From a virus (lineage: Duplodnaviria > Heunggongvirae > Uroviricota > Caudoviricetes), in the IMG/VR virus record IMGVR_UViG_2671180896_000002: a stretch of DNA of 47,890 bases, one strand, 5' to 3'. The first letter of the stretch is position 1. Every line of letters starts with the position of its first letter. Both the position numbers and the translations under genes were made by a program. The notes under the pieces were generated by a model. It searched no databases. It was not told the DNA's origin and saw only the letters and a program-made list of their open reading frames with translations. Positions 2,401 through 26,759 of this stretch are shown piece by piece.

Positions 2401-5400
2401 TCAACGAATACTGATGCCGGAAGCGGCTTTTTTGGTCACAATCACCGTACAGTCGGTGATATTGCCTGCCCCCTGATTGCCTTTCTGGAAAATCTTAAAC
2501 TCCAGAGTGACGCTACCACCACCACTAGGCATATCAATAACTGCACTGTAACTACCGGGAATGGCCCCTTTAGTTTCTCTGGATGCGATTAATACGCCGT
2601 TTTTGCGAACTTCAAAACCATAACCCGTGTATCGCGTGCCTCCTGGGTTATTTCCGCTCCCCGGATCGTCATACGCTATACCGTTAAAAATAATGGGCGG
2701 AATAATAATCTGGCGGTCAAAGTTATGATCATCGCTGATGGTGACTGTAACCGTACCGTTTGGTGTTTCCGTGTTACCCCACGTACCGACTTTTTTCGGG
2801 AAGGCTTTTGATACAGCTTTAACGAAATCCCCTCTGACCTGGGTCGCCTCCAGCATGCCCTTAATCGTACAGTTCTGGTTAATCGTGACATTGTTGAGCG
2901 TTCCTGAGTTCGCATTCACACTACCACTGATATCCGCATTTTTAGCGGTCAGCTTTCCGTCTGATGTCAGGGAAAATACCGGAGGACTGCCACCGCTGGT
3001 AATGGTGGGGGCTGTCAGGCGCTTCAGGAACACGTCGTTCATGAATATCTGGTTGCCCTGCGCCACAAACATCGGCGTTTCATTCCCGTTTGCCGGGTCA
3101 ATAAACGCGATACGGTTAGCGGCAACCAGAAACTGGCTCAGCTTGCCTTCCTCCGTGTCCTCCATGCTGAGGCCAATACCCGCGACATAATGTTTGCCGT
3201 CTTTGGTCTGCTCAATTTTGACGCCCCACATGGCATTCCATTTATCGTTAGCGTCCTTCCACTCTTTCGAAAACTCATCCAGTCTGCTGGCGTTATCCTC
3301 CGTCAGATCAACTTTTTCCAGCAGCTCTTTACCGAGATGGGATTCGGTTATCTTGCCTTTGAAAAAATCCAGGTAACCTTCCGCATCATCGCTCGCCCGA
3401 CCGACAGCCTCCACGAATGCCGATTTGCCAACGGTGTTCACACTGCGAACGTAAAAATAATAATCATGGCCCGGTTTGATATTGATACTGGCGGCTATCC
3501 AGTACAGCGCCGTACCAAGATAGCGGGCTGTGGTTTCAACCTGCCTGATATCGGTAATCCGCTTTTCCGAGAACCAGAACTCAAACTGTACCGTCGGGTC
3601 ATAAACAGCAAGATGCGGCGTGGCGGTTATCTGAAAATAGCCCGGCGTCAGCTCAATCCTCGACGGTGCTGCCGGTGCGGCAATCCGGAACGATACCGAC
3701 GCCGGATCACCCTGCTGCCCCCGGGCATTTACCGCCCGGACTGTCAGCCTGTAGTTCCCCAGCGCCAGTTGCGTGAAGCGGTATGTGGTTTCCGTCGTCC
3801 GGGCCGTGCTGACCAGCCGCTCACTGCCGTCGTCCGCTGTTACGGTCAGACGGAGCAGGAAGCTCACGCCCTTCACCACCTTCGGTGTGTCCCATCGAGC
3901 CAGCACCTGGTATTCCCCACTGTCTGCGGTGACTTCTGCGGTCAGGTGCTGCACCGCTGGCGGCGTGACACCATTCACCGTGCCGCTCTGGTCGCCGTCA
4001 AAGTGCGCCCCGTTATCCACGATGGCTTCTTTTTCCGGTACATGCTGCACGGCAGTGATGGCATACGTGCCGTCATCGTTCTCACGGATACTCACACAGC
4101 GGAACAGGCGCTGACGCAACGTCGGCAACTTCAGCCCCCACACACTGTATTCTGCAACGCCGTCAGGAACCCGGTTCACTTTCACCTTAAGTCCGTCGGT
4201 GACGGACTGAACCTCCACGCTGACCGGATTACCACTTCCGTCAACCAGGCTTATCAGCGTGGTACCGGAGGATGGCAGCGTGATTTCACGGTCGAGCGTC
4301 AGCGTCCGGGTCTGGCTGTTCACCGCCAGCACGCGACCACCGGTGCTGATACCGGCATAGTCATCATCGCAGATTTCAATGACATCGCCCGGTACATGGC
4401 GAAGCCCTTCAGCACCCACGCTGAAATCCACGGTCTGCGTTTCCAGCAGTTCCGTTTTAATCAGCCACAGCCCGGCTCGGTGTGCCTGCCCCCGACTGGT
4501 ACAACCAAAGGCATCCATCTTCGTGACATTACGACCGTAACGGGCAATGGCCTGCGTATCTTCAACAAGCTCTGTCGCCGTCTCCCAGCCGTTGTTCGGG
4601 TCAATCCAGTTCACCTCAACGGCATTATGGCGGTCCTTCAGGGCGCTGAAGCTGTAGCGGAACGGCGCGCCATCATCCGGCATCACCACATTACTGCGGT
4701 TATAGGTCCACACCTTATCCGACGGTCGGTCCTGCACGAACGTCAGCGTCTGCCCGTTCCATACCGGCATACAGCGCATCGCCGAGCAGAAATCACTGAG
4801 CACATCCCACGCCTTACGCTGTGTGGTCAGGTACGCATTACAGGTGATGCGCGGCTCCGTGCCGCCAAAGCCGTCCGGCACTGACTGGTCGCAGTACTGG
4901 CCGATGACATACAGCGCCCATTTGTCCACATCCGCCGCACCAAGACGTTTCCCCATGCCGTAGCGTGGATGGCTCAGCATATCCCACAGACACCAGGCCA
5001 TGTTATTGCTGTATGCTGGCTTAAACGTTCCGTCCCAGATACCGCTGTATTGCCGCGTCTGCGGGTTATAGTTCGACGGCACCTGCAGAATACGCCCGCG
5101 CAGATGATAATTACGGCTCACCTGCTGGCTGCCGAACTGCTCCGAATCCACCTGCACGCCGACCAGTGCCGTGTTCGGGTAGCACTGTTTCACATCGATG
5201 ATTTCGGTGTATGACGACCAGAGCGTTTTGTTCTGCAGCTGGTCTGTGGTGCTGTCCGGCGTCATCCTGCGCATCCGGATATTGAACGGGCGCGGCGGCA
5301 GGTTACCCACCACCACCGATGCCAGATACTGTGAGGTGGTTTTGCCTTTAATGGTGATGTCTTTTTCCGTCACCCAGCCACCGTTACGCTGTATCTGAAC

Positions 5401-5874: not shown

Positions 5875-6522
5875 TCAGCGACCAATCACCACAACCTGAC
5901 CACCATCCCCTTCGTCTGCCGTGCTGATCTCCTGAGAGACCACCCGCGACCCCACGCGCATTTCACCGTACAGAACGGGCAGAACATTGCCCTGGGCAAC
6001 CATGTTATCCAGTGACGAGAAATACGTGTTCTGTTTGCCGTTATCTGTACTGGCTGCCGTGGGCGTCCTGGCTTTCGGTGCCAACATCTGCGCCACACCG
6101 CCCAGGATCATACTGGCCCCTGCCGCATACATACCCGATACAGCCGTGGCCCCCAGCCAGCCCACAGGGTTCCACCATGCAACCGCAATCAGCGCCGCCC
6201 CCAGCACTGCCTGAAAAATACCGCCACTTTTAGCACCCGCCGGACGCGGTACGATGTGGATCACGGCACCATTTTCCAGCGGCTCATTAAGACGGGCAGA
6301 CAATTCAGTTTCACCTGCATCACGCCCGGCAATGCGTACCTGGTACCAGCCGTCGCTCAGTTTCTGACGAAATGCCGGGATCTGCATGGCCAGCGCCCGG
6401 ATGGCTTCGGACCCCGTTTTCACTCGAAGGTCGATGCGGCGGCCAAATCGTTGTAAATCCCCGTAAAGGCAGATGCGTGCCATGCCCGGTGACGCCAGAG
6501 GGAGTGTGTGCGTCGCTGCCAT
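5875..6522 (-). CDS. I: Tail assembly protein I
   Basis: 215-aa ORF MAATHTLPLASPGMARICLYGDLQRFGRRIDL... ending ...TADEGDGGQVVVIGR, lambda gpI-like; precise start uncertain because the ORF overlaps the upstream K ORF by 103 nt. Confidence 0.85.
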   Translation of the reverse strand: MAATHTLPLASPGMARICLYGDLQRFGRRIDLRVKTGSEAIRALAMQIPAFRQKLSDGWYQVRIAGRDAGETELSARLNEPLENGAVIHIVPRPAGAKSGGIFQAVLGAALIAVAWWNPVGWLGATAVSGMYAAGASMILGGVAQMLAPKARTPTAASTDNGKQNTYFSSLDNMVAQGNVLPVLYGEMRVGSRVVSQEISTADEGDGGQVVVIGR

Positions 6523-7163
6523 TTGTCGGTGTACCTCTCTCGTTTGCTCAGTTGTTCAGGAATATGGTGCAGCAGCTCGCTGTCACCACAGTAAATGGCG
6601 GCATGATTCGGCACCGATGAACCAAAACAGCACAGCAGCACATCGCCCGGCTGCGCCGCTGACAACGGCACCTGATACAGCCCTGTGGCCTCCAGATTAT
6701 CCAGATAGAGATTCTGACCGTGACGCCACCAGTTATCCCCGCGATGAAAATCCGGCATCTCAATTCCCGCCAGATGGTAAGCGTCCCGGAACAGCGTGTA
6801 ACAGTCCGTCACCCCGTGCTCAAAGCGCCGCCCGGTGAGATGCGGCACACAGCGGAATTTATGAATCGCCCCCCGGCAGACCAGCCACCACGGCAAATCA
6901 CTCTGTACCTGCAGCCGCCGGTCGGCCTCACTCAGCCAGGGCAGACCACCGGGGTGGCTGTGGACCAGCGCCACAATCTCTCCCTGCATTTCTGCACTCA
7001 GCCAGTCCTCCGGCGACATCCGGAAATACGCCTCCGGCTCACCGGAGATATTCACGCAGGGAAAATATCTTTCCTCCTCCGGCGTTCTCACCACGAAGCC
7101 GCACGACTCCGCTGGCGCACATCGCCGGGCGTGCGCCAGAATCGCTGATTCTGTCTCTGTCAT
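6420..7163 (-). CDS. K: Tail assembly protein K (JAMM/MPN plus NlpC/P60-like domains)
   Basis: 247-aa ORF MTETESAILAHARRCAPAESCGFVV... with HSHP metal-binding motif; lambda gpK-like, between L and I. Confidence 0.85.
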   Translation of the reverse strand: MTETESAILAHARRCAPAESCGFVVRTPEEERYFPCVNISGEPEAYFRMSPEDWLSAEMQGEIVALVHSHPGGLPWLSEADRRLQVQSDLPWWLVCRGAIHKFRCVPHLTGRRFEHGVTDCYTLFRDAYHLAGIEMPDFHRGDNWWRHGQNLYLDNLEATGLYQVPLSAAQPGDVLLCCFGSSVPNHAAIYCGDSELLHHIPEQLSKRERYTDKWQRRTHSLWRHRAWHASAFTGIYNDLAAASTFE

Positions 7164-7867: not shown

Positions 7868-8205
7868 CAGATCACCACTTCGTCAAACTGACACGAAAAA
7901 TCGGTATAGGTGATATGTTCTGTCGCTGACCACGTTCGACACACCACTCTGATTTTTCTGTTAATACCCGGCGGGCGCCAAAAAAAAGATTTATAGCCTT
8001 CATGCCGGGCTAAAAATTTTTCAAATGAATCACGTTCATTCGCCTCAACTTTGAAATCACAGGTGAAAACGCGCAGAGAATGATTAAGTCCATTTGGACT
8101 TCGTTGCTCATAACCATCGCCAAATCTTACAGTTTTTATCGATGGTTTATTTTCTGTTTTCATTCCATCCTCTGGTAACCAGTGAAATTCTTCCGTATTA
8201 GCCAC
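7867..8205 (-). CDS. Minor tail protein M-like (divergent from lambda M)
   Basis: 112-aa ORF between H and L containing the [10 protein letters not shown] motif shared with lambda gpM (VRFGDGYSQR); locally AT-rich DNA, start/stop overlaps with H and L. Confidence 0.7.
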
Positions 8206-11200
8206 TTAACATTCCCCCATCACGTCGCATATTTAACAGATTGCCCTGCACCCGCTGATCAACCATCCCCATAAGTGCTTTTATTGCCTGAGGGCCAATC
8301 TCTCCATTCTGGCCGTCATTTTGAATAGTGATTTGGTATACAGGGGCATAGGTAATATCTCCGCCTCCATTACCACTTTTACTATTAATAGCTCTGACAC
8401 CAAGAGAACCATCGGAAGTTCGTGTTAATGGCATAATGGCTTCCGGACCAGCCTCACCAAAAACACCAGCCCCTCTTGCAAAAGCAAAAAATTGCGGGGA
8501 ATCATAAATACCGTTCGAATACGTGTTCAATGACGGAGACTCATAAACACCGCCCTTTGCATTCGGAATAAATTTACTAATAGCACTCCCGATAGTTCCT
8601 AAAATCCCCCCAGAAGAACTGTTACTAATGCTGTCGAAAATCCCAGTAATTGAAGCCTTTAATGCTATTCGACTAAGATCCGAAATCACGGAAGTAGCGA
8701 AAGAACGAAAATTTGCCTTGCCTGTCGTGACAAAATCACCCAGCGCATCGGTCATTCCATCAAACATCTGAGTCGTGGTTGATTTTATCTGCTCACTGAT
8801 ATCCTTAGTGTCATCCAGCCAGTTATTGAATCCCTGGGAGGCACCACTAACCCAGTCTCCTGCCTGAATATCGAGCTGCTCGTTTTTCTGTCTGACAATT
8901 TCTTTTTCTCGTTCCAGAGCATCATTCAGAGCCTGCATTTTCTCCTGAAAAACATGATTTGACATCCCACGGGATTTATCTGCATAGTCACGTTCAAGTT
9001 GCAGACGCTGATTGTTATATTCACGTTCAATCCGCAGTAATTCCTGCTGGCGTTGCTGATTTTTATCGCCAACCCCATAACCAGCAATCTGAATATCATA
9101 CCCCTGTTGACGATTATCAATCGAAGCCTGCAATGAATCACGCCATGCAGCTATTTCGGCGGATTCCTTGATTAGCCTGTTATTTTTTTCAATCGCAACA
9201 TTTTTCTCCATCAACGCGGTTATTTCTTCCCGGTGTAAGAGAAGCGATTTCTGATCCTGGGTTAATTTCGATGACGGTCGTGACTCCAGGTCGGCAATCT
9301 GCTGACGCCACTTAACCAGTTCCTGTTCAGAGGAACTTAATTTAACGGTTAATTCAGTTTGTGAACTTAGTAACGCATTCTGTTGATTCAGATGATCAAT
9401 CATTCGTTGGGCAGCATCATCCGAATAACCTTTCGCCTTTGGTTGCTTTGGATCTTTATAACGCTCATTTATTTGAGCGATAAAATTATTATATTCTTCC
9501 TTTGAATACTGACTCTTTAGCTTTTCCAGTTTTGCAAGTTCACTAGCTCTCTGCTGCTCCCGGGTCTGATATTGTTTTGAAAAGGCATCTGCTCTCTGTC
9601 TGAGTTCAATTCCTTCCTGTTGTCGCTTGTTGTAATCGTTTATTGATGAATTTAGGACGTCCTGAGCAATTTTTTCTGCTTGAAGTACGCCCAATTGCTG
9701 CTTTAATCGTGCCAGCCTTTTATTTTGAGCTCCGCCATCTCCAATGCCACCTAACCCGAAAACTCCGGGTCGGGTATTTTTTTCTATTTCATCAATTTGA
9801 CGGAGAACATCTGAGATTTTTTGATCAAGGGAGGCCTCACGGCCAATGTCCAGCATGGAATCCCATGCCCATTTTGCGGAGTCTGCGACAGCTTTCCATG
9901 CAGTCTCAAGATAACCAAGATTTTCTTTAATCTGGTTGGTGCGCTGGATCATTGAGGATGAGTATGCTTCTGTCGCAATGCGGGCGGCCTCCTGCTGGTT
10001 CCCTTCATCCTGTAGCGCCTTAATCTGGTTATAAGTCGCAATTGTCAGAAAATGGTACTGATCATTAAGTTTTGATATGGCACTGACAGGATCCTTTGCA
10101 ATTTCATTGAAGTCATTAACCAGTTGTTCGGTTGATATTCCTGTTACTTCGCTCGTTTTTACTATCGCTGTCGTCACTTGCTCCAGCGAACTGCTCGCTA
10201 CCTTTCCCGAACGCACAAGCTGGTTTAATACTGCCGCCGCAGCGCCAGTTGTCGAATCAGCCGCATTCCCGGCACGTTGAGCTATATCGGCCAATTGCCC
10301 GCTGGTTGTCCCCAACTGATTTCCGGTAAGAATAAGAGATTTATTAAATTCGTCCTGCTCCTGAGAGCCTTTATAGTAAGCCAGCCCTAAGACGCCAACG
10401 GCTGCTGCGGCCAGGGTAAAAGGATTAATTAATCCCAGCACATAAGAACCAACACCTTTGATCGCCGGGCCAATCCCACCGAACATATCTTTTAGCTGGC
10501 CGCCCTGCTGCATTAACACCATAAAAGGCGACTGACCAGTGGACAACCCAACAACAATATCCGTCATTTGTGCAGGCAACATGCGCATAGCAAAAGCCGT
10601 TTGTTTTGCCGACATTCCGGTTTTGCTTAATTGAGATTGAGTAACCTCAAGCTCACTCCGCATAGCACGAAGTTTTCCAGAAAGTTCCTCATACATTTCA
10701 GGAGAGAGCATCCCCTTAGCTTTTGCTTCATTGAGCTGTTTCTGTTGTTCTACCAGACGATTAAAAGCAGTTCCGACAGGGTCAAGTTGAGCAATCAGAC
10801 GTTGCAAAGCAGCAACCTGTTCATCATGCGCTTTTGCTGCTTCTCGCTCTGCCTGAGCCTCTCCGGTAAGCTCTCGCCGTGTTTCCTGCATTTTTCGGCT
10901 ATAATTCTCAAACTGAGAACCATTTATTTTCCCGGATGCAAACGCAGCATTAAGTTCATCCTGCTGTTGTTCAAGATTTCTTAGCGCCGCAGCCAGAGGG
11001 TCGATCTTGTCCAGCATTCTTTGAAAGGCCTGAGCCTGCGCTTCCTGCTGGGCGGCAGCAAGTTTTCCGGCCTTCTCGGCTTCTCTCTGCGCTTGCGCAA
11101 CCCCGCTCAATTCCTCTGTGGTTTCATTAAGTTTACGGACAAGAAATTCATATTCTTCTTTATCAATAAGCCCTTTATCGAAAAATTTCTTTAATTCAGA

Positions 11201-11431
11201 ATAGCGTCGACCGACAGTATCAATTGCGGCACCAACTGGATCAATAGCTGCTTTTAATTTTGCGAGCGCGTTCTTCTCATCTTCTGTTGCCTTAGTCACT
11301 TTCCCTGCGCTATTTGCAGCAGTTTCCCCGGCCTGCGTCATTTTGACTAATGAGGAGGTCAGATTGTCAGCATTATTTTTTGCTCCAGTGCTATCAATAA
11401 TTATTGCGAGACGCGAGGTTTGCTCTGCCAT
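8198..11431 (-). CDS. Tail tape measure protein (H-like)
   Basis: 1077-aa ORF, coiled-coil-rich with three tandem ~60-aa repeats near the N-terminus, hydrophobic central segment and glycine-rich C-terminal part; follows the G/G-T chaperone genes. Confidence 0.9.
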
Positions 11432-11452
11432 TTATTAAAACTCCAGACAACA

Positions 11453-11476
11453 AAAAGCCCACCGAAGTGGGTTTCA
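11453..11476 (-). terminator. Terminator-like hairpin between G-T and the tape measure gene
   Basis: Minus strand: GAAACCCAC-TTCG-GTGGGC followed by TTTTTG; lies in the 160-bp gap between the G-T stop and the H start. Confidence 0.4.
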
Positions 11477-11594
11477 GGCGACATAATAGTAGATATAGCG
11501 ATTACGAGGCCACGCAATGCTTTTCTCCAGGAGCATCATCGATTTAATTAAAGACACCATCACATCTCTGTAACAGAGTGTACGTAATTAACAA

Positions 11595-11915
11595 CTACAC
11601 ACACTGCTCCTGAAAATACTGGTCATCCAGTGCAAAGATCACTGCTTCAAACTCATCGCGCTCAATCAATACCGGATGAGTGGCTAAATATTCATTTATC
11701 TCTGTCAGAGATAAAGGCAAAGGCACCCCGGTCATTCCAGCATAACGTCGGGCACGGGATATTACCGAATAGGCGTACAACAATTCCTTAAGCACCGGGT
11801 CTATTTCTGGTTCCGGTATCGGTGGCAACCTGAGTTTTTCTCGCTTCCATCTTGCCTTTTCCCCCCTTTCTCCCCCGAACTCCGATAACCACCGCTGGGC
11901 GGCTATGGCTTTTTT
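11595..11915 (-). CDS. T-like extension of the tail assembly chaperone (expressed as G-T fusion after -1 frameshift)
   Basis: -1 frame relative to G is open from the slippery site through ...RLPPIPEPEIDPVLKELLYAYS... to the stop at 11595; conserved G/G-T arrangement upstream of tape measure genes. Confidence 0.7.
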   Translation of the reverse strand, partial: KKAIAAQRWLSEFGGERGEKARWKREKLRLPPIPEPEIDPVLKELLYAYSVISRARRYAGMTGVPLPLSLTEINEYLATHPVLIERDEFEAVIFALDDQYFQEQCV

Positions 11916-12364
11916 ATCGTATCCTGCTTCTGCTGCTCTTTACCCTGGGCGATGCTGGCTGCTTCTGCAAGGATCTGCCAGTACAACTCTGGATTCTGCT
12001 TAAGCAGCGCGATCCCTCGTTCTGGCGTATATTCCAGTGCAACCTCAGCACCATTAACCAGTTCACCAACCCCTTTCCAGTCTTTCAGCAGATAACGAGC
12101 AGCATTATCAATGAGTAAATCATCAACAGAATCTACCTCGGAAACCTTTGAAATATCAAACTCCTTCGTTCCGACGTGCAAACTGGCATCCATTTTCTCA
12201 ATGTGACGACGGATTAATGCATTACGGGAGCGATACTGATCGTTATCGCTGCTTGCCACCAACAGTTTTAACCCGTCTACAGGTTTTAAGTCCTTCATTG
12301 GCGTAAACCAGCGTTCTCCACCGATGATAATTTTCTGATTAAGAATAAACATCCATAACCTCAT
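11903..12364 (-). CDS. Tail assembly chaperone G
   Basis: 153-aa ORF directly downstream of the major tail gene; AGGGGGA SD 9 nt upstream of ATG at 12364; ends at TAG 11903-11905 immediately after the slippery heptamer. Confidence 0.8.
   Translation of the reverse strand: MRLWMFILNQKIIIGGERWFTPMKDLKPVDGLKLLVASSDNDQYRSRNALIRRHIEKMDASLHVGTKEFDISKVSEVDSVDDLLIDNAARYLLKDWKGVGELVNGAEVALEYTPERGIALLKQNPELYWQILAEAASIAQGKEQQKQDTIKKP
11909..11915 (-). other. Programmed -1 ribosomal frameshift site (slippery heptamer A AAA AAG)
   Basis: Minus-strand codons ATA AAA AAG CCA TAG at the end of G; the -1 frame is open from here to 11595 with no stop codon, and the downstream ORF frame (coordinate mod 3) matches a -1 shift. 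Confidence 0.75.
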
Positions 12365-12412
12365 TCAATGCGTCCCCCTGTAGTGCAGTACCACAGGGGG
12401 AATAACGGAAAA

Positions 12413-13375
12413 TCAACTAATCGCATCAGCACTGGCTTTTGCGATCACGGCAGTCGGGGAGCATTTTTTTCTGGTTATCGTAGGTGCTTCATCTGCTGCG
12501 GTAATGCTCAATTGAACCTGGATAATGTCAGTATTACCCCCATCAGGCCATTCACCTGACACCTGAACCTTCGGGAAACTGAAAGTGTATGCCCCCTCTC
12601 CATTCGAAAGCGTGAAGCTGAACGGAACTGTTTCTCCAGTCAGTGTTTTACTCCAGATTTCCCACGCGGCTTTAGACCATGAAAGCGTCACCGTACCGGA
12701 CGGTGTAAAAGTAGTCGGAATATTTGCTCCTGCATAAGGCGAGCCAGTCCCGATACAACGCTGTGTCTGGAGTTTGTTATCGAACTGAATATCAAAACTG
12801 TCGATACAAAAACCGTTACCTCCGGCAACACCATTCAGGCTTACTGCTGAAACCGCCTTAAACGAATAGCGTAACTTTCCTGCACTATCCACAGGTTCGC
12901 CTTTGATAAAATTCGTATCATCGGCCTTTGATTCCCAGCCCAGCCCGGCAAAGGTTACGGTCGCTGTAATATCGCCGTCGTTAGGGATCTGCATTTTCCA
13001 TGAGCCAACCTGCGCTCCTCTGACGACAGAGGCAATTCCGACATCGGACGCATAGGTCGCCAGAGAAAATGTTATTCGCTCATTCCCCATTGTCAGAGAA
13101 TCGCCTGACCATTCCGCGCCGAAACAGGATGCAAGAAAATCATCATGTTGACCCCAGCGAAATTTGGTACCAACATCACCGCCGACATCCACAGTGCCAG
13201 GCGTCGCCCCCTGAGCCATCCGGGAGCCACCAATCTCATTATTTTCGCCTTTATTCTGGGTGGGTTTTACTCCCCAGCTTGTGCGTTTTAATAAACTCCA
13301 GTCACCACTTGCTGGCGTAGTGCCTGCAACTGTCTCCCGGATAAATGCCGAGATAACCTTTGCACCTGAACTCAC
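12413..13375 (-). CDS. Major tail protein (V-like)
   Basis: 320-aa ORF with GTG start preceded by AGGAGG SD; position between tail terminator-like gene and G; size and Ser/Thr/Gly-rich composition typical of siphovirus major tail subunit with C-terminal extension. Confidence 0.7.
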   Translation of the reverse strand: MSSGAKVISAFIRETVAGTTPASGDWSLLKRTSWGVKPTQNKGENNEIGGSRMAQGATPGTVDVGGDVGTKFRWGQHDDFLASCFGAEWSGDSLTMGNERITFSLATYASDVGIASVVRGAQVGSWKMQIPNDGDITATVTFAGLGWESKADDTNFIKGEPVDSAGKLRYSFKAVSAVSLNGVAGGNGFCIDSFDIQFDNKLQTQRCIGTGSPYAGANIPTTFTPSGTVTLSWSKAAWEIWSKTLTGETVPFSFTLSNGEGAYTFSFPKVQVSGEWPDGGNTDIIQVQLSITAADEAPTITRKKCSPTAVIAKASADAIS

Positions 13376-14171: not shown

Positions 14172-14555
14172 TTACGCTCTCCTTAACTGGATAGAGTAAA
14201 CTGATGCGGAAGGATCTACACTCGCTGTAATTACCTCGTATCGTTGTAACTGCCTTAATACAGGATCATAAATCTCAATAATATGGTCGACAGCGGGTTT
14301 ATCCGTAACCTCGCATACCAGAGCGGTTAATTTAAGGTCACCATGCAAAATATTAATCCCATCAATTCTGCCCAGCTTATAACGTGTCAACACGCCTCGC
14401 CCGGTATAGATTGCGGTGGATTCGCCGCCAGTTTCCGTCACAGGATCCCAGTGCCGGTGCGTAACGTAAGAACCAGAAAAATCACTCACGGCGTCCGCTA
14501 AATCCTCATCAAAAGCAGCGGCAACCTCTGACTGAATCTCTTCACGAAGCCCCAT
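14172..14555 (-). CDS. Head-tail adaptor / head completion protein (by position)
   Basis: 127-aa ORF between the connector-like gene and tail completion genes; start overlaps upstream stop. Confidence 0.5.
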   Translation of the reverse strand: MGLREEIQSEVAAAFDEDLADAVSDFSGSYVTHRHWDPVTETGGESTAIYTGRGVLTRYKLGRIDGINILHGDLKLTALVCEVTDKPAVDHIIEIYDPVLRQLQRYEVITASVDPSASVYSIQLRRA

Positions 14556-14950
14556 TATCCCCCCCTCACAACCCTGACTTGTGAGCGACTAAGTCCGTAC
14601 GGTTTCAGCAGTGCTATCGCAAGCTGTAAATCGGGTTCAAGCAATGCAGTGCTGTTTGCTGGCAACTCAGAAAATGATTTCGATACACTGACCCCGTCAG
14701 CCGACACGGCTTTACTGATAACAACGCCAGAATCATTTTTCTGCTGAAACAACTTACCGAATGAGGCAATTCTGGCTGCATATGCTCCCGCAAGTTTTAC
14801 CTCTTCCGGAATACGGGATGGGTTAATTTTCAGGTTGAAGCCATTAAGCCAGGCATTAGCCATTAAAACAGCTTTATTTTTAGCGTTCTCACTCGTCCAG
14901 GCGTTCCCAAACGCATTATCAACGTCATCACAGGTCACGTAAGTGATCAT
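14555..14950 (-). CDS. Head-tail connector protein (gp6-like, by position)
   Basis: 131-aa ORF MITYVTCDDVDNAFGNAWTSENAKNKAVLMANAWL...; first gene after capsid gene and terminator, typical location of phage head-tail connector. Confidence 0.5.
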   Translation of the reverse strand: MITYVTCDDVDNAFGNAWTSENAKNKAVLMANAWLNGFNLKINPSRIPEEVKLAGAYAARIASFGKLFQQKNDSGVVISKAVSADGVSVSKSFSELPANSTALLEPDLQLAIALLKPYGLSRSQVRVVRGG

Positions 14951-17279: not shown

Positions 17280-18395
17280 TTAAATCCCTGCTTTTCTGAA
17301 TACCTGTGCATCACGCTCACGGAGCTGCTTCAGCGTCAGCCATTCGCCTTTATCGGTGTAAAATTCATCTGGCGACATACCACCATCCCGAATCAGCTTT
17401 GCTCGGGTTTCCCCCACAATCTGTTTTTGTCTGGTGTAAGGCTGACGCAAAAACCATTCCCTGTAGGTTGTATCTCCGGCCACCACGCCATCCATGCTGG
17501 CCCGCTCAGCCGGGGAAATATCGCGAACATCAATACCCAGTTCCTTCGCTGATTTCAGAATGAACGTTTCCGTTGAGCGGCAGCAGAAATGAATTTTTCC
17601 CGGCCCCTGCAAATAAGGCACGCTGTGACCTACAGGTTTATTATTCAGCGTATATTTGAGGCGATCCCTGATTCGACATTGTGGCGTAGTACGATTATCA
17701 AGCGTTGATAACCATTGCTTACCCTTAATCAAATCATTATTCGCGCTGGCAAAACTCTCACGGGCAGTAGCAGCAAGATGTCCAACCGCTGTTTTTGCAA
17801 TGCTGGCCGCATTAGCCCGGCTCATCTGCAATGCACCATCCTGAAATCCCTTACTGACATGTCCCCGAATTTTTCTTGCGATCTGCTCATTGGTATCCCC
17901 CAGCAAAAAACCCTGACGCACTGTATTTGTTATGCGTCTGAGCCGATCCGCCTCAAGATCTGAGGCCCACTCACTGAGCAGTCGTCCCTGGAATGGTCGC
18001 GCCATTGCAGCGGCATAAAGTGCATCAGGAGAGATACCAACCAGAGGGTGAACATCAGCAACAAAATCAGGTAGCATAGAATCAAACAGACTTAACTGAT
18101 AACCAGCCTCATAAATTGCCAGCTCGTTCAGCTCTCCGGAGAGACTGGTAAACATGCTGTTAATAGCAGTGCGGTTAACCTTTCTGACGCTCGCCAGAAG
18201 TGACTCCAGGCGCTTAACGGTAAAATTACCTGGATCGAGGCTGTCCAGTGCTATCAGCAGGCGAGCAGTAAGTTCCGCATCGCTGTCATTCAGTATTTTC
18301 ACCATTCTGGCAGCCACGCCAGTGCTATAGCGGGATATCCAGACTGCATGAGCAATTGATTCATCACGCAGCCGTTCATTCACGGTTTGCATCAT
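17280..18395 (-). CDS. Minor head protein, Mu gpF / SPP1 gp7-like head morphogenesis protein
   Basis: 371-aa ORF directly downstream of and overlapping the portal gene; the portal then minor-head-protein order is typical of SPP1-like headful packaging modules. Confidence 0.6.
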   Translation of the reverse strand: MMQTVNERLRDESIAHAVWISRYSTGVAARMVKILNDSDAELTARLLIALDSLDPGNFTVKRLESLLASVRKVNRTAINSMFTSLSGELNELAIYEAGYQLSLFDSMLPDFVADVHPLVGISPDALYAAAMARPFQGRLLSEWASDLEADRLRRITNTVRQGFLLGDTNEQIARKIRGHVSKGFQDGALQMSRANAASIAKTAVGHLAATARESFASANNDLIKGKQWLSTLDNRTTPQCRIRDRLKYTLNNKPVGHSVPYLQGPGKIHFCCRSTETFILKSAKELGIDVRDISPAERASMDGVVAGDTTYREWFLRQPYTRQKQIVGETRAKLIRDGGMSPDEFYTDKGEWLTLKQLRERDAQVFRKAGI

Positions 18396-25800: not shown

Positions 25801-26265
25801 TTACTTTAAACACTGCTCGGTTATGTATTGCTGAGCACCTTCAAGTTGGGCCTGCATCATTACCAGTCGTTCCCGGAGGGTGAAATAATCCCGTTCAGCG
25901 GTGTCTGCCAGTCGGGGGGAGGCTGCATTATCCACGCCGGAGGCGGTGGTGGCTTCACGCACTGACTGACAGACTGCTTTGATGTGCAACCGACGACGAC
26001 CAGCGGCAACATCATCACGCAGAACATCATTTTCAGCTTTCGCATCAGCTAACTCCTTCGTGTATTTTGCATCGAGCGCAGCAACATCACGCTGACGCAT
26101 CTGCATGTCAGTAATTGCCGCGTTCGCCAGCTTCAGTTCTCTGGCATTTTTGTCGCGCTGTTCTTTGTAGGCGATGGCGTTATCACGGTAATGATTAACA
26201 CCCCATGACAGGCAGACGACGATGCAGATAACCAGAGCGGAGATAATCGCGGTTACTCTGTTCAT
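25801..26265 (-). CDS. Spanin, inner-membrane subunit (Rz)
   Basis: Start [21 protein letters not shown] (N-terminal TM) overlapping the endolysin stop (ATGA); coiled-coil periplasmic domain; last gene of the lysis cassette. Confidence 0.8.
25860..26045 (-). CDS. Spanin, outer-membrane lipoprotein subunit (Rz1), embedded in Rz in another frame
   Basis: 61-aa [27 protein letters not shown]... with lipobox (VVGC) and proline-rich mature part ([15 protein letters not shown]), fully inside Rz. Confidence 0.75.
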
Positions 26266-26759
26266 TGCTGACCCCACAAACAGATTTCACGCTCAATCTC
26301 ACGACGAGTCATGAGACCTTTCCATTGCTTACCGCCAGCATATGTCCAGCGACGTAGCTGATCACATGCGCCTTTGATATCGCCCTGGTTTATTTTGCGA
26401 AGAAGCGTCGATGTTCTGAAATTGCCAGCACCCACGTTGTAAACGAATGAGTAAAGAGCGCCGCGCGTTGTTTCCGGTATATCGACTTTGATGTACGGGT
26501 TAATTTGTCTGGCGACCGTGGCAAGGTCTTTATTCAAGAGTGTTTTGCATTCTGCTTTGGTATACGTTTTACCGAGCATGATGTCTTTTCCTGTATGCCC
26601 GTGACATACAGTCCATACACCAACAATATCTTTGTATGGTATGTAGCTGACACCTTCCAGACCATCGTTACCACTTGGGCCAGTGATTAACACTGATGCT
26701 ATAGCAATTGCTCCGCCACCAATAGCAGCAGCAACGACTTTTCGTAATGATGGAGGCAT
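26262..26759 (-). CDS. SAR endolysin (lysozyme family, N-terminal signal-anchor-release domain)
   Basis: 165-aa ORF with Gly/Ala-rich weakly hydrophobic N-terminus ([20 protein letters not shown]); start overlaps holin stop (TAATG). Confidence 0.8.

Follow-up and report, generated by a model that had tools for sequence, protein, structure and literature searches.

In bacteriophage lambda, the tail assembly chaperones gpG and gpGT act on the tape measure protein, the T domain recruits the tail tube and neither product is found in the virion (Levin, Hendrix and Casjens, 1993; Xu, Hendrix and Duda, 2004, 2013, 2014, as these are summarized within PMC5009743). In a lambdoid prophage of E. coli O157:H7 Sakai, the chaperone genes ECs1801/ECs1802 represent cluster A_AAA_AAG_25 of Sharma et al. 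(2014; PMC4066793), which is marked 'true' and for which the −1 product is ∼100 amino acids (aa) longer. The locus investigated here lies on a 47,890-nt stretch of viral DNA (IMG/VR record IMGVR_UViG_2671180896_000002), the whole of which is referred to as the window, and encodes a G-like tail assembly chaperone and a T-like extension in the −1 frame. A programmed −1 ribosomal frameshift in the chaperone gene, yielding G and a minor GT fusion in a Rac-like lambdoid siphophage prophage of E. coli, is very probably the correct explanation of this arrangement. All coordinates of the G open reading frame (ORF), the slippery heptamer and the T frame are those of the minus strand of the window, and the elements are as follows.

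11903..12364, minus strand: G-like tail assembly chaperone ORF, 153 codons from ATG 12364, with the stop codon TAG at 11905-11903
11909..11915, minus strand: slippery heptamer A_AAA_AAG in the X_XXY_YYZ phase, with AAA in the P site and AAG in the A site
11906..11939, minus strand: two-frame overlap of 34 nt in which both frames are open, after TAA 11942-11940 and before the zero-frame stop 11905-11903
11595..11909, minus strand: T-like extension in the −1 frame, 104 codons and the stop codon TAG at 11597-11595, with the G at 11909 read twice

The 3′ end of the G ORF reads ...CAG GAT ACG ATA AAA AAG CCA TAG. The zero-frame codons inside the heptamer are AAA (11914-11912) and AAG (11911-11909), which is the phase required for a tandem −1 slip, and a shift would be confined to 11906..11939 because both frames are open only there. 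A reading made earlier from the sequence alone (the sequence-only reading) had located A AAA AAG at 11909-11915 in the last codons of G and a −1 frame open for ∼105 codons to 11595. Both observations can be read directly from the DNA, the heptamer being in the correct phase and the frame comprising 104 codons before its stop at 11597-11595. The same reading had the slippery site directly adjacent to the G stop codon; this needs correction, as one sense codon (CCA) intervenes.

The T extension comprises the residues AIAAQRWLSEF...QEQCV, the translation starting AIAAQRWLSEFGGERGEK and ending ...DDQYFQEQCV. The predicted GT fusion is 256 aa from ATG 12364 or 252 aa from ATG 12352, with the predicted junction ...QDTIKK/AIAAQRW... 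and the junction peptide ...DTIKKAIAAQRWLSE. The T-frame peptides that lie N-terminal of V(11795) in the predicted fusion include AIAAQR, WLSEFGGER and LPPIPEPEIDPVLK. In the T frame, no ATG, GTG or TTG occurs after the upstream stop (11940) until TTG 11828, which is the first start codon of that frame and is located 27 codons past the slip site. For G itself, ATG 12364 is the start of the longest ORF, and the second ATG, 12352 (MFILNQ..., 149 aa), appears the more likely start. It is preferred because GAGG lies 6 nt upstream, homologues start with MFIL, MLII or MFVI, the match to PHROG 313 starts from residue 5 and most gene calls begin there.

The bare heptamer says little by itself, since copies of AAAAAAG are frequent in the window (24, compared with 15.6 expected). 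In phase, A_AAA_AAG was found at only two of the ∼12,760 codons of the window's likely genes. The chance of finding an in-phase high-efficiency heptamer in the 11-codon overlap is ∼1%, rising to ∼5% for any canonical heptamer. Two further in-phase heptamers were observed elsewhere on the minus strand, T_TTA_AAG (25804..25810), one codon from the end of the ORF 25801..26277, and G_GGG_GGA (14558..14564), one codon from the end of the ORF 14555..14950; both are probably chance occurrences.

The strongest evidence against chance is comparative, and was drawn from a set of 96 loci including the window. Contig scans supplied at least seven confirmed loci from genome contigs and mostly close relatives from viral contigs, and the distant lineages therefore rest on approximately ten loci. 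An ORF homologous to T was present in the −1 frame relative to the G homologue in 95 of the 96 loci, and the two-frame arrangement was found in at least eight genera and in isolated phages, encompassing Escherichia, Salmonella, Citrobacter, Klebsiella, Mixta, Erwinia, Pseudomonas and Acinetobacter. The sole exception to the −1 relation, L016, has two homopolymer-length changes inside T (2960..3030) and looks like a sequencing error or a case of decay. A check of the viral-contig loci that had E-values of 1e-143, and had for this been suspected to be in-frame fusions, revealed L016 alone as off-frame, through its homopolymer indels. In one further protein (P0001, E. coli NB16F79_39920, 240 aa) a deletion puts T in the same frame as G, the two being joined by the −1-frame residues ...AEAGYDKKAIAAQ. 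P0001 and L016 may be either decaying prophages or assembly errors.

A_AAA_AAG was invariant in 30 distinct enterobacterial contexts, in which G identity ranged from 64% to 100% and the G stop codon lay 3, 21, 75 or 105 nt past the heptamer. Upstream of the heptamer, variation fell on zero-frame third positions (13 of 15 variable, against 2 of 15 and 4 of 15 in the other two phases), and downstream it fell on −1-frame third positions (22 of 25, against 9 of 25 and 8 of 25). It is exactly at the heptamer that the variable third positions pass from those of the zero frame to those of the −1 frame. The codon that follows GCC is ATA, ATC or ATT, all encoding Ile in the −1 frame, while the zero-frame TAG changes to TCG or TTG, natural variants that occur in L060 and L055; an exchange that is synonymous in the −1 frame consequently makes or removes the zero-frame stop codon. 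This switch in variability and the synonymous Ile changes show that the −1 frame is under purifying selection from the first codon past the heptamer. The T protein is likewise conserved from that codon in more distant relatives, reading AIAAQRWLSEFGG in the window, AIEAQKWL.. in Klebsiella, VIEAQEWL.. in Erwinia and AIARFQWE.. in Pseudomonas.

An alignment of six predicted fusions, drawn from E. coli, Klebsiella, Erwinia, Pseudomonas and two Acinetobacter phages, has only 16 invariant columns, one of which is the Lys at the slip site, K152; the slip column is conserved. Mixta and Acinetobacter loci carry lambda's G_GGA_AAG at the homologous column. Four Pseudomonas loci carry the non-canonical G_GAA_AAG (L005 434..440, L006 1887..1893, L011 and L012 2926..2932), and Erwinia phage Gungnir39 (L004 1986..1995) carries C_GCA_AAG, followed directly by TAA. 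In these Pseudomonas loci and in Gungnir39 the T-frame homology begins right past the motif. The core common to all relatives is A_AAG, and to judge from their sequences the Pseudomonas G_GAA_AAG loci and Gungnir39 seem to rely on this core alone; tetramers of the form Z_ZZN are listed as a −1 motif class in E. coli by Sharma et al. (2014; PMC4066793).

Profile comparisons place both parts in one family. G alone matched PHROG 313 (tail assembly chaperone) over profile positions 13-149 of 258 (161 bits, E 8.2e-47), and the predicted fusion matched it as one stretch over positions 13-246 (176.7 bits, E 1.3e-51). The T part alone matched PHROG 1189 (function unknown, E 1.8e-36) and, weakly, positions 174-246 of PHROG 313, a profile that was evidently built partly from fused proteins of the same layout. 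A scan of Pfam-A at E ≤ 0.01 returned no family for G and only PF23812 (Phage_TAC_18) for T, at 20.3 bits (E 6.3e-4, positions 12-78 of 79), which is below the 27-bit cut-off and is suggestive. The same scan, at the same threshold, gave no match to the families of lambda gpG and gpT. PF06894 and PF06223 are presumably the Pfam models of these two proteins. G and T are consequently lambda-like by position and mechanism only and are not members of the lambda gpG and gpT sequence families. The tag PF27119.1, precomputed by Pfam, is attached to all of the G homologues, so that YdaY-like proteins seem to be covered by a recent Pfam family.

The structure of G modelled with AlphaFold had a predicted local distance difference test value of 74 and a predicted template modelling score of 0.72. 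Its structural neighbours in BFVD were mostly named as tail or tape measure chaperones, and its top structural match in PDB was the HK97 tail assembly chaperone (2OB9 and relatives were tested); both are weak evidence of fold, and the modelled structure is, weakly, consistent with a tail assembly chaperone. A sequence search of PDB with the family profile found nothing meaningful, and we know of no solved structure of a T domain.

The genes on either side of the pair are as follows.

12413..13375, minus strand: major tail tube gene, directly upstream of G (Pfam PF18906 Phage_tube_2, E 1.9e-32; 'phage tail tube protein' in the Prokaryotic Genome Annotation Pipeline, PGAP)
8198..11431, minus strand: tape measure gene, downstream of the T frame (Pfam TMP_2, PF06791, 1.1e-81; also Tape_meas_lam_C and TMP_4)

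The G/T pair is located between the tube and tape measure genes, an order also shown by PGAP, and homologues of the lambda-like genes M, L, K, I and J follow past the tape measure gene. The proposal of the sequence-only reading, that this is a G-T-like chaperone frameshift upstream of a tape measure gene, is therefore supported by the reading frames, by conservation, by gene order and by PHROG 313.

In the favoured explanation, most ribosomes would end translation at TAG 11905-11903 and so produce G (149-153 aa). A small share would slip back by one base with tRNA-Lys on AAA in the P site and on AAG in the A site; both tRNAs would re-pair with AAA AAA, and reading would resume at GCC ATA GCC.... 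The slipped ribosome would append the 104-residue T domain, giving a GT protein of 252-256 aa. If the analogy with the lambda products gpG and gpGT holds, the tape measure protein would be coated by G and by the G part of GT, the T domain would bring in the tail tube protein and the finished virion would contain neither product. The chaperone roles of both products are assigned on the strength of this analogy.

Elements that might stimulate the shift were sought on both sides of the heptamer, and two candidates were considered.

11882..11908, minus strand: hairpin directly 3′ of the heptamer, specific to the window's lineage; minimum free energy −17.3 kcal/mol for 11830-11908
11922..11925, minus strand: AGGA, weak Shine-Dalgarno-like sequence 6 nt upstream of the heptamer

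The segment 11830-11908 folds no better than its shuffles (z −0.11), and RNAalifold on 14 diverse relatives found no conserved downstream structure (consensus −7 kcal/mol, almost no covariation). A conserved downstream stimulator was rejected on these two grounds, and the hairpin at 11882..11908 is probably not a stimulator. A stimulatory structure in 11860-11905, which the sequence-only reading had advised looking for, is not supported. The AGGA is a possible upstream stimulator, judged by its conservation. All 30 enterobacterial contexts have CAGGA, unchanged even at the synonymous G of CAG, and Mixta and Erwinia lack it; the 6-nt spacing of AGGA is at the short end of the 6-17 nt that Sharma et al. 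(2014) searched.

In E. coli reporters, A_AAA_AAG shifts at 0.29% when no stimulator is present, at 4.3% when it is combined with the moderate IS911 stimulator and at 39% when it is combined with the IS3 pseudoknot (Sharma et al., 2014; PMC4066793). The ratio of GT to G inferred from these values would probably lie in the range from ∼0.3% to a few per cent. The lambda G-T shift is also low-level (PMC5009743). Efficient shifting in pea enation mosaic virus depends on a stop codon placed 3 nt 3′ of the shift site (PMC5009743), and the window, with its stop one codon past the heptamer, has the same geometry. Across the chaperone family the zero-frame stop lies 0, 3, 21, 75 or 105 nt past the motif. 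It is conceivable, and on balance rather unlikely, that the site is a natural test of a minimal bacterial −1 signal, in which the nearby stop codon would stimulate the shift through a terminating ribosome or slow release and so offset the missing RNA structure.

The locus is widespread in E. coli and is annotated there in a different manner. A 1.2-kb region containing it shows 100% identity to E. coli strain 90-1 and 98-99.9% identity both to several hundred further E. coli chromosomes and to ten records of induced prophages or phages, and was matched in 1,075 of 5,426 complete E. coli genomes. The defective Rac prophage of E. coli K-12 carries a truncated copy, in which the G ORF has lost its 5′ end and is named 'ydaY' (119 aa), while 'ynaA' is a fragment of the tape measure gene. 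RefSeq and GenBank annotate 'YdaY' and a separate 'hypothetical protein', with no ribosomal slippage. On intact prophages PGAP calls YdaY from an internal TTG (12262, 119 aa) and a 66-aa hypothetical protein from GTG 11795; the YdaY span, 11903..12262 in the window, corresponds to 6339..6698 in L001 (strain 90-1) and 2493..2852 in L002, and the intact gene encodes 149-153 aa. The internal TTG start appears to be chosen because the naming model derives from the 5′-truncated K-12 Rac remnant. The prophage of strain 90-1 has an internal stop codon in its C40 peptidase (gpK-like) gene and a frameshift in its minor head protein gene. As both genes are intact in the window (6420..7163 and 17280..18395 respectively, minus strand), the window's prophage may be functional.

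Four points weigh against a programmed frameshift at this locus. There is no experimental evidence for the fusion at this locus in the literature searched; no Pfam or NCBIfam model in the libraries scanned was matched by either ORF at its curated threshold; efficiency may be low, given that no conserved downstream hairpin or pseudoknot was found; and the A6 run in principle allows slippage by RNA polymerase, which would give the same protein.

The last of these points underlies a very unlikely alternative, namely that transcriptional slippage is the main route and that RNA polymerase adds one A to the six already present. The slip site is homopolymeric and an extra A in the mRNA gives exactly ...KKAIAAQ..., so that, the product being identical, transcriptional and ribosomal slippage are indistinguishable at the protein level. 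However, efficient transcriptional slippage in bacteria has been described for runs of nine A or T (PMC5009743) and the run here has six. The relatives' motifs G_GGA_AAG, G_GAA_AAG and C_GCA_AAG contain only three or four A's and suit re-pairing of tRNA rather than slippage of polymerase, and the phase of the motif is conserved, which matters for ribosomal slippage only. For these reasons we infer that the slippage is ribosomal.

It is highly improbable that G and T are separate genes, with T expressed from the internal GTG 11795 (66 aa, as called by PGAP) or from TTG 11828 and the heptamer incidental. The two-gene annotation of RefSeq and GenBank and the frequency of AAAAAAG in the window speak for such an arrangement, but the protein conservation of the −1 frame extends over the 27 codons before any possible start, from the heptamer on. 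Moreover, both GTG 11795 and TTG 11828 lack a Shine-Dalgarno sequence at a workable distance, the internal starts picked by gene callers differ between relatives, the −1 relation holds in all loci of the set except L016 and the fusion matches PHROG 313 without interruption. That an ancestral chaperone gene was split by a 1-nt deletion in a defective prophage, with T no longer made, is scarcely credible: K-12 Rac is indeed a defective remnant with a 5′-truncated ydaY and a cut tape measure gene, and real indels occur at the locus in some assemblies (L016, P0001), but the same two-frame layout is shared by many genera and isolated phages, the T frame is under purifying selection and the neighbouring tail and head genes of the window are intact, unlike those of strain 90-1.

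Further features were observed in the DNA on either side of the G/T pair. Between the tail tube stop and the G start (12373..12401, minus strand) is a 12-bp GC-rich hairpin, UCCCCCUGUGGU-ACUGC-ACUACAGGGGGA. The 81-nt segment that holds it folds at −25.3 kcal/mol (z −2.87), and no T-run follows the hairpin in the window. Klebsiella, Citrobacter, Erwinia and Acinetobacter relatives have a GC hairpin at the same spot followed by TTTTT, which by its sequence looks like an intrinsic terminator. The hairpin between the tube gene and G probably causes G, GT and the tape measure protein to be expressed less than the tube protein, or else shields the 3′ end of the tube mRNA. On the other side, a gap of 163 nt (11432..11594, minus strand) separates the T stop from the tape measure start and contains a 28-aa ORF (11560..11474, MVSLIKSMMLLEKSIAWPRNRYIYYYVA). 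A terminator-like hairpin (11471..11458, minus strand), CCCACTTCGGTGGG plus CTTTTTGTTG, directly follows this ORF. One to four extra genes occupy the slot between GT and the tape measure gene in Klebsiella L003, in Pseudomonas phage Aurca01 and in Acinetobacter phage TRS1 (which has an annotated terminator there), and from this pattern the gap looks like a site of moron insertion.

A search of the literature for a frameshift in the YdaY/Rac-like lineage, in which the combination 'ydaY' and 'frameshift' was included, found no description. The mechanism and the gene class are those of textbooks, there is nothing mechanistically new here and a distant member of the family, TRS1, is already annotated with a join. 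The value of the assignment is mainly for annotation, as the locus is labelled 'YdaY' and 'hypothetical protein' in the 1,075 E. coli genomes that match it and in related phage records. Reading the pair as G/GT gives ydaY a function, as the remnant of the Rac tail assembly chaperone, and supplies the correct product of 252-256 aa. The variety of heptamers and stop positions within the family could also aid studies of frameshift efficiency.

Among known systems, E. coli dnaX (gamma/tau) has the same heptamer, A_AAA_AAG, read by the single tRNA-Lys of E. coli. The dnaX signal has a strong upstream Shine-Dalgarno sequence and a downstream hairpin, shifts with ∼50% efficiency and gives a shifted product that is the shorter one. 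The window differs in having a weak AGGA 6 nt upstream, no conserved hairpin and a longer shifted product. Acinetobacter phage Loki gp12/gp13 (PMC5313236) provides a fused chaperone that was a structural neighbour of the G model (rank 9); its motif is AAAAAAC and the likeness is at the level of the fold only (template modelling score ∼0.5). ECs1801/ECs1802, from prophage Sp9 of E. coli O157:H7 Sakai, has A_AAA_AAG at the extreme end of a lambdoid-prophage chaperone gene (AGA AAA AAG TAG). It differs in that its stop codon directly follows the heptamer and in that ECs1801 is not homologous to the window's G (BLASTP E = 1). Cluster A_AAA_AAG_25 was considered as a prior description of the locus and was ruled out because ECs1801, its representative, is non-homologous.

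A distant relative in the same family is the pair TRS1_18/TRS1_19 of Acinetobacter phage vB_AbaS_TRS1 (NC_031098), which shares PHROG 313, has a T that is 36-39% identical and has a Lys homologous to that of the slip site. The record annotates a two-piece joined chaperone coding sequence, the length of which (746 nt + 1) fits a −1 shift at G_GGA_AAG. In TRS1 this heptamer lies 78 nt before the G stop codon, G identity is ∼25% and extra genes lie between GT and the tape measure gene. From lambda the window is set apart by the lack of detectable similarity of its proteins to the lambda G and T families (no Pfam match), by its A_AAA_AAG heptamer with a zero-frame stop one codon later and by a tube protein of the Phage_tube_2 type rather than gpV. 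It is nevertheless lambda G-T that the locus most resembles. In both, the pair is flanked by the major tail gene on one side and by the tape measure gene on the other, the −1 shift is assigned to an X_XXA_AAG heptamer near the 3′ end of G, no downstream structure is known and the T domain is present only as a C-terminal extension; the Mixta and Acinetobacter relatives of the window share the exact heptamer of lambda, G_GGA_AAG.

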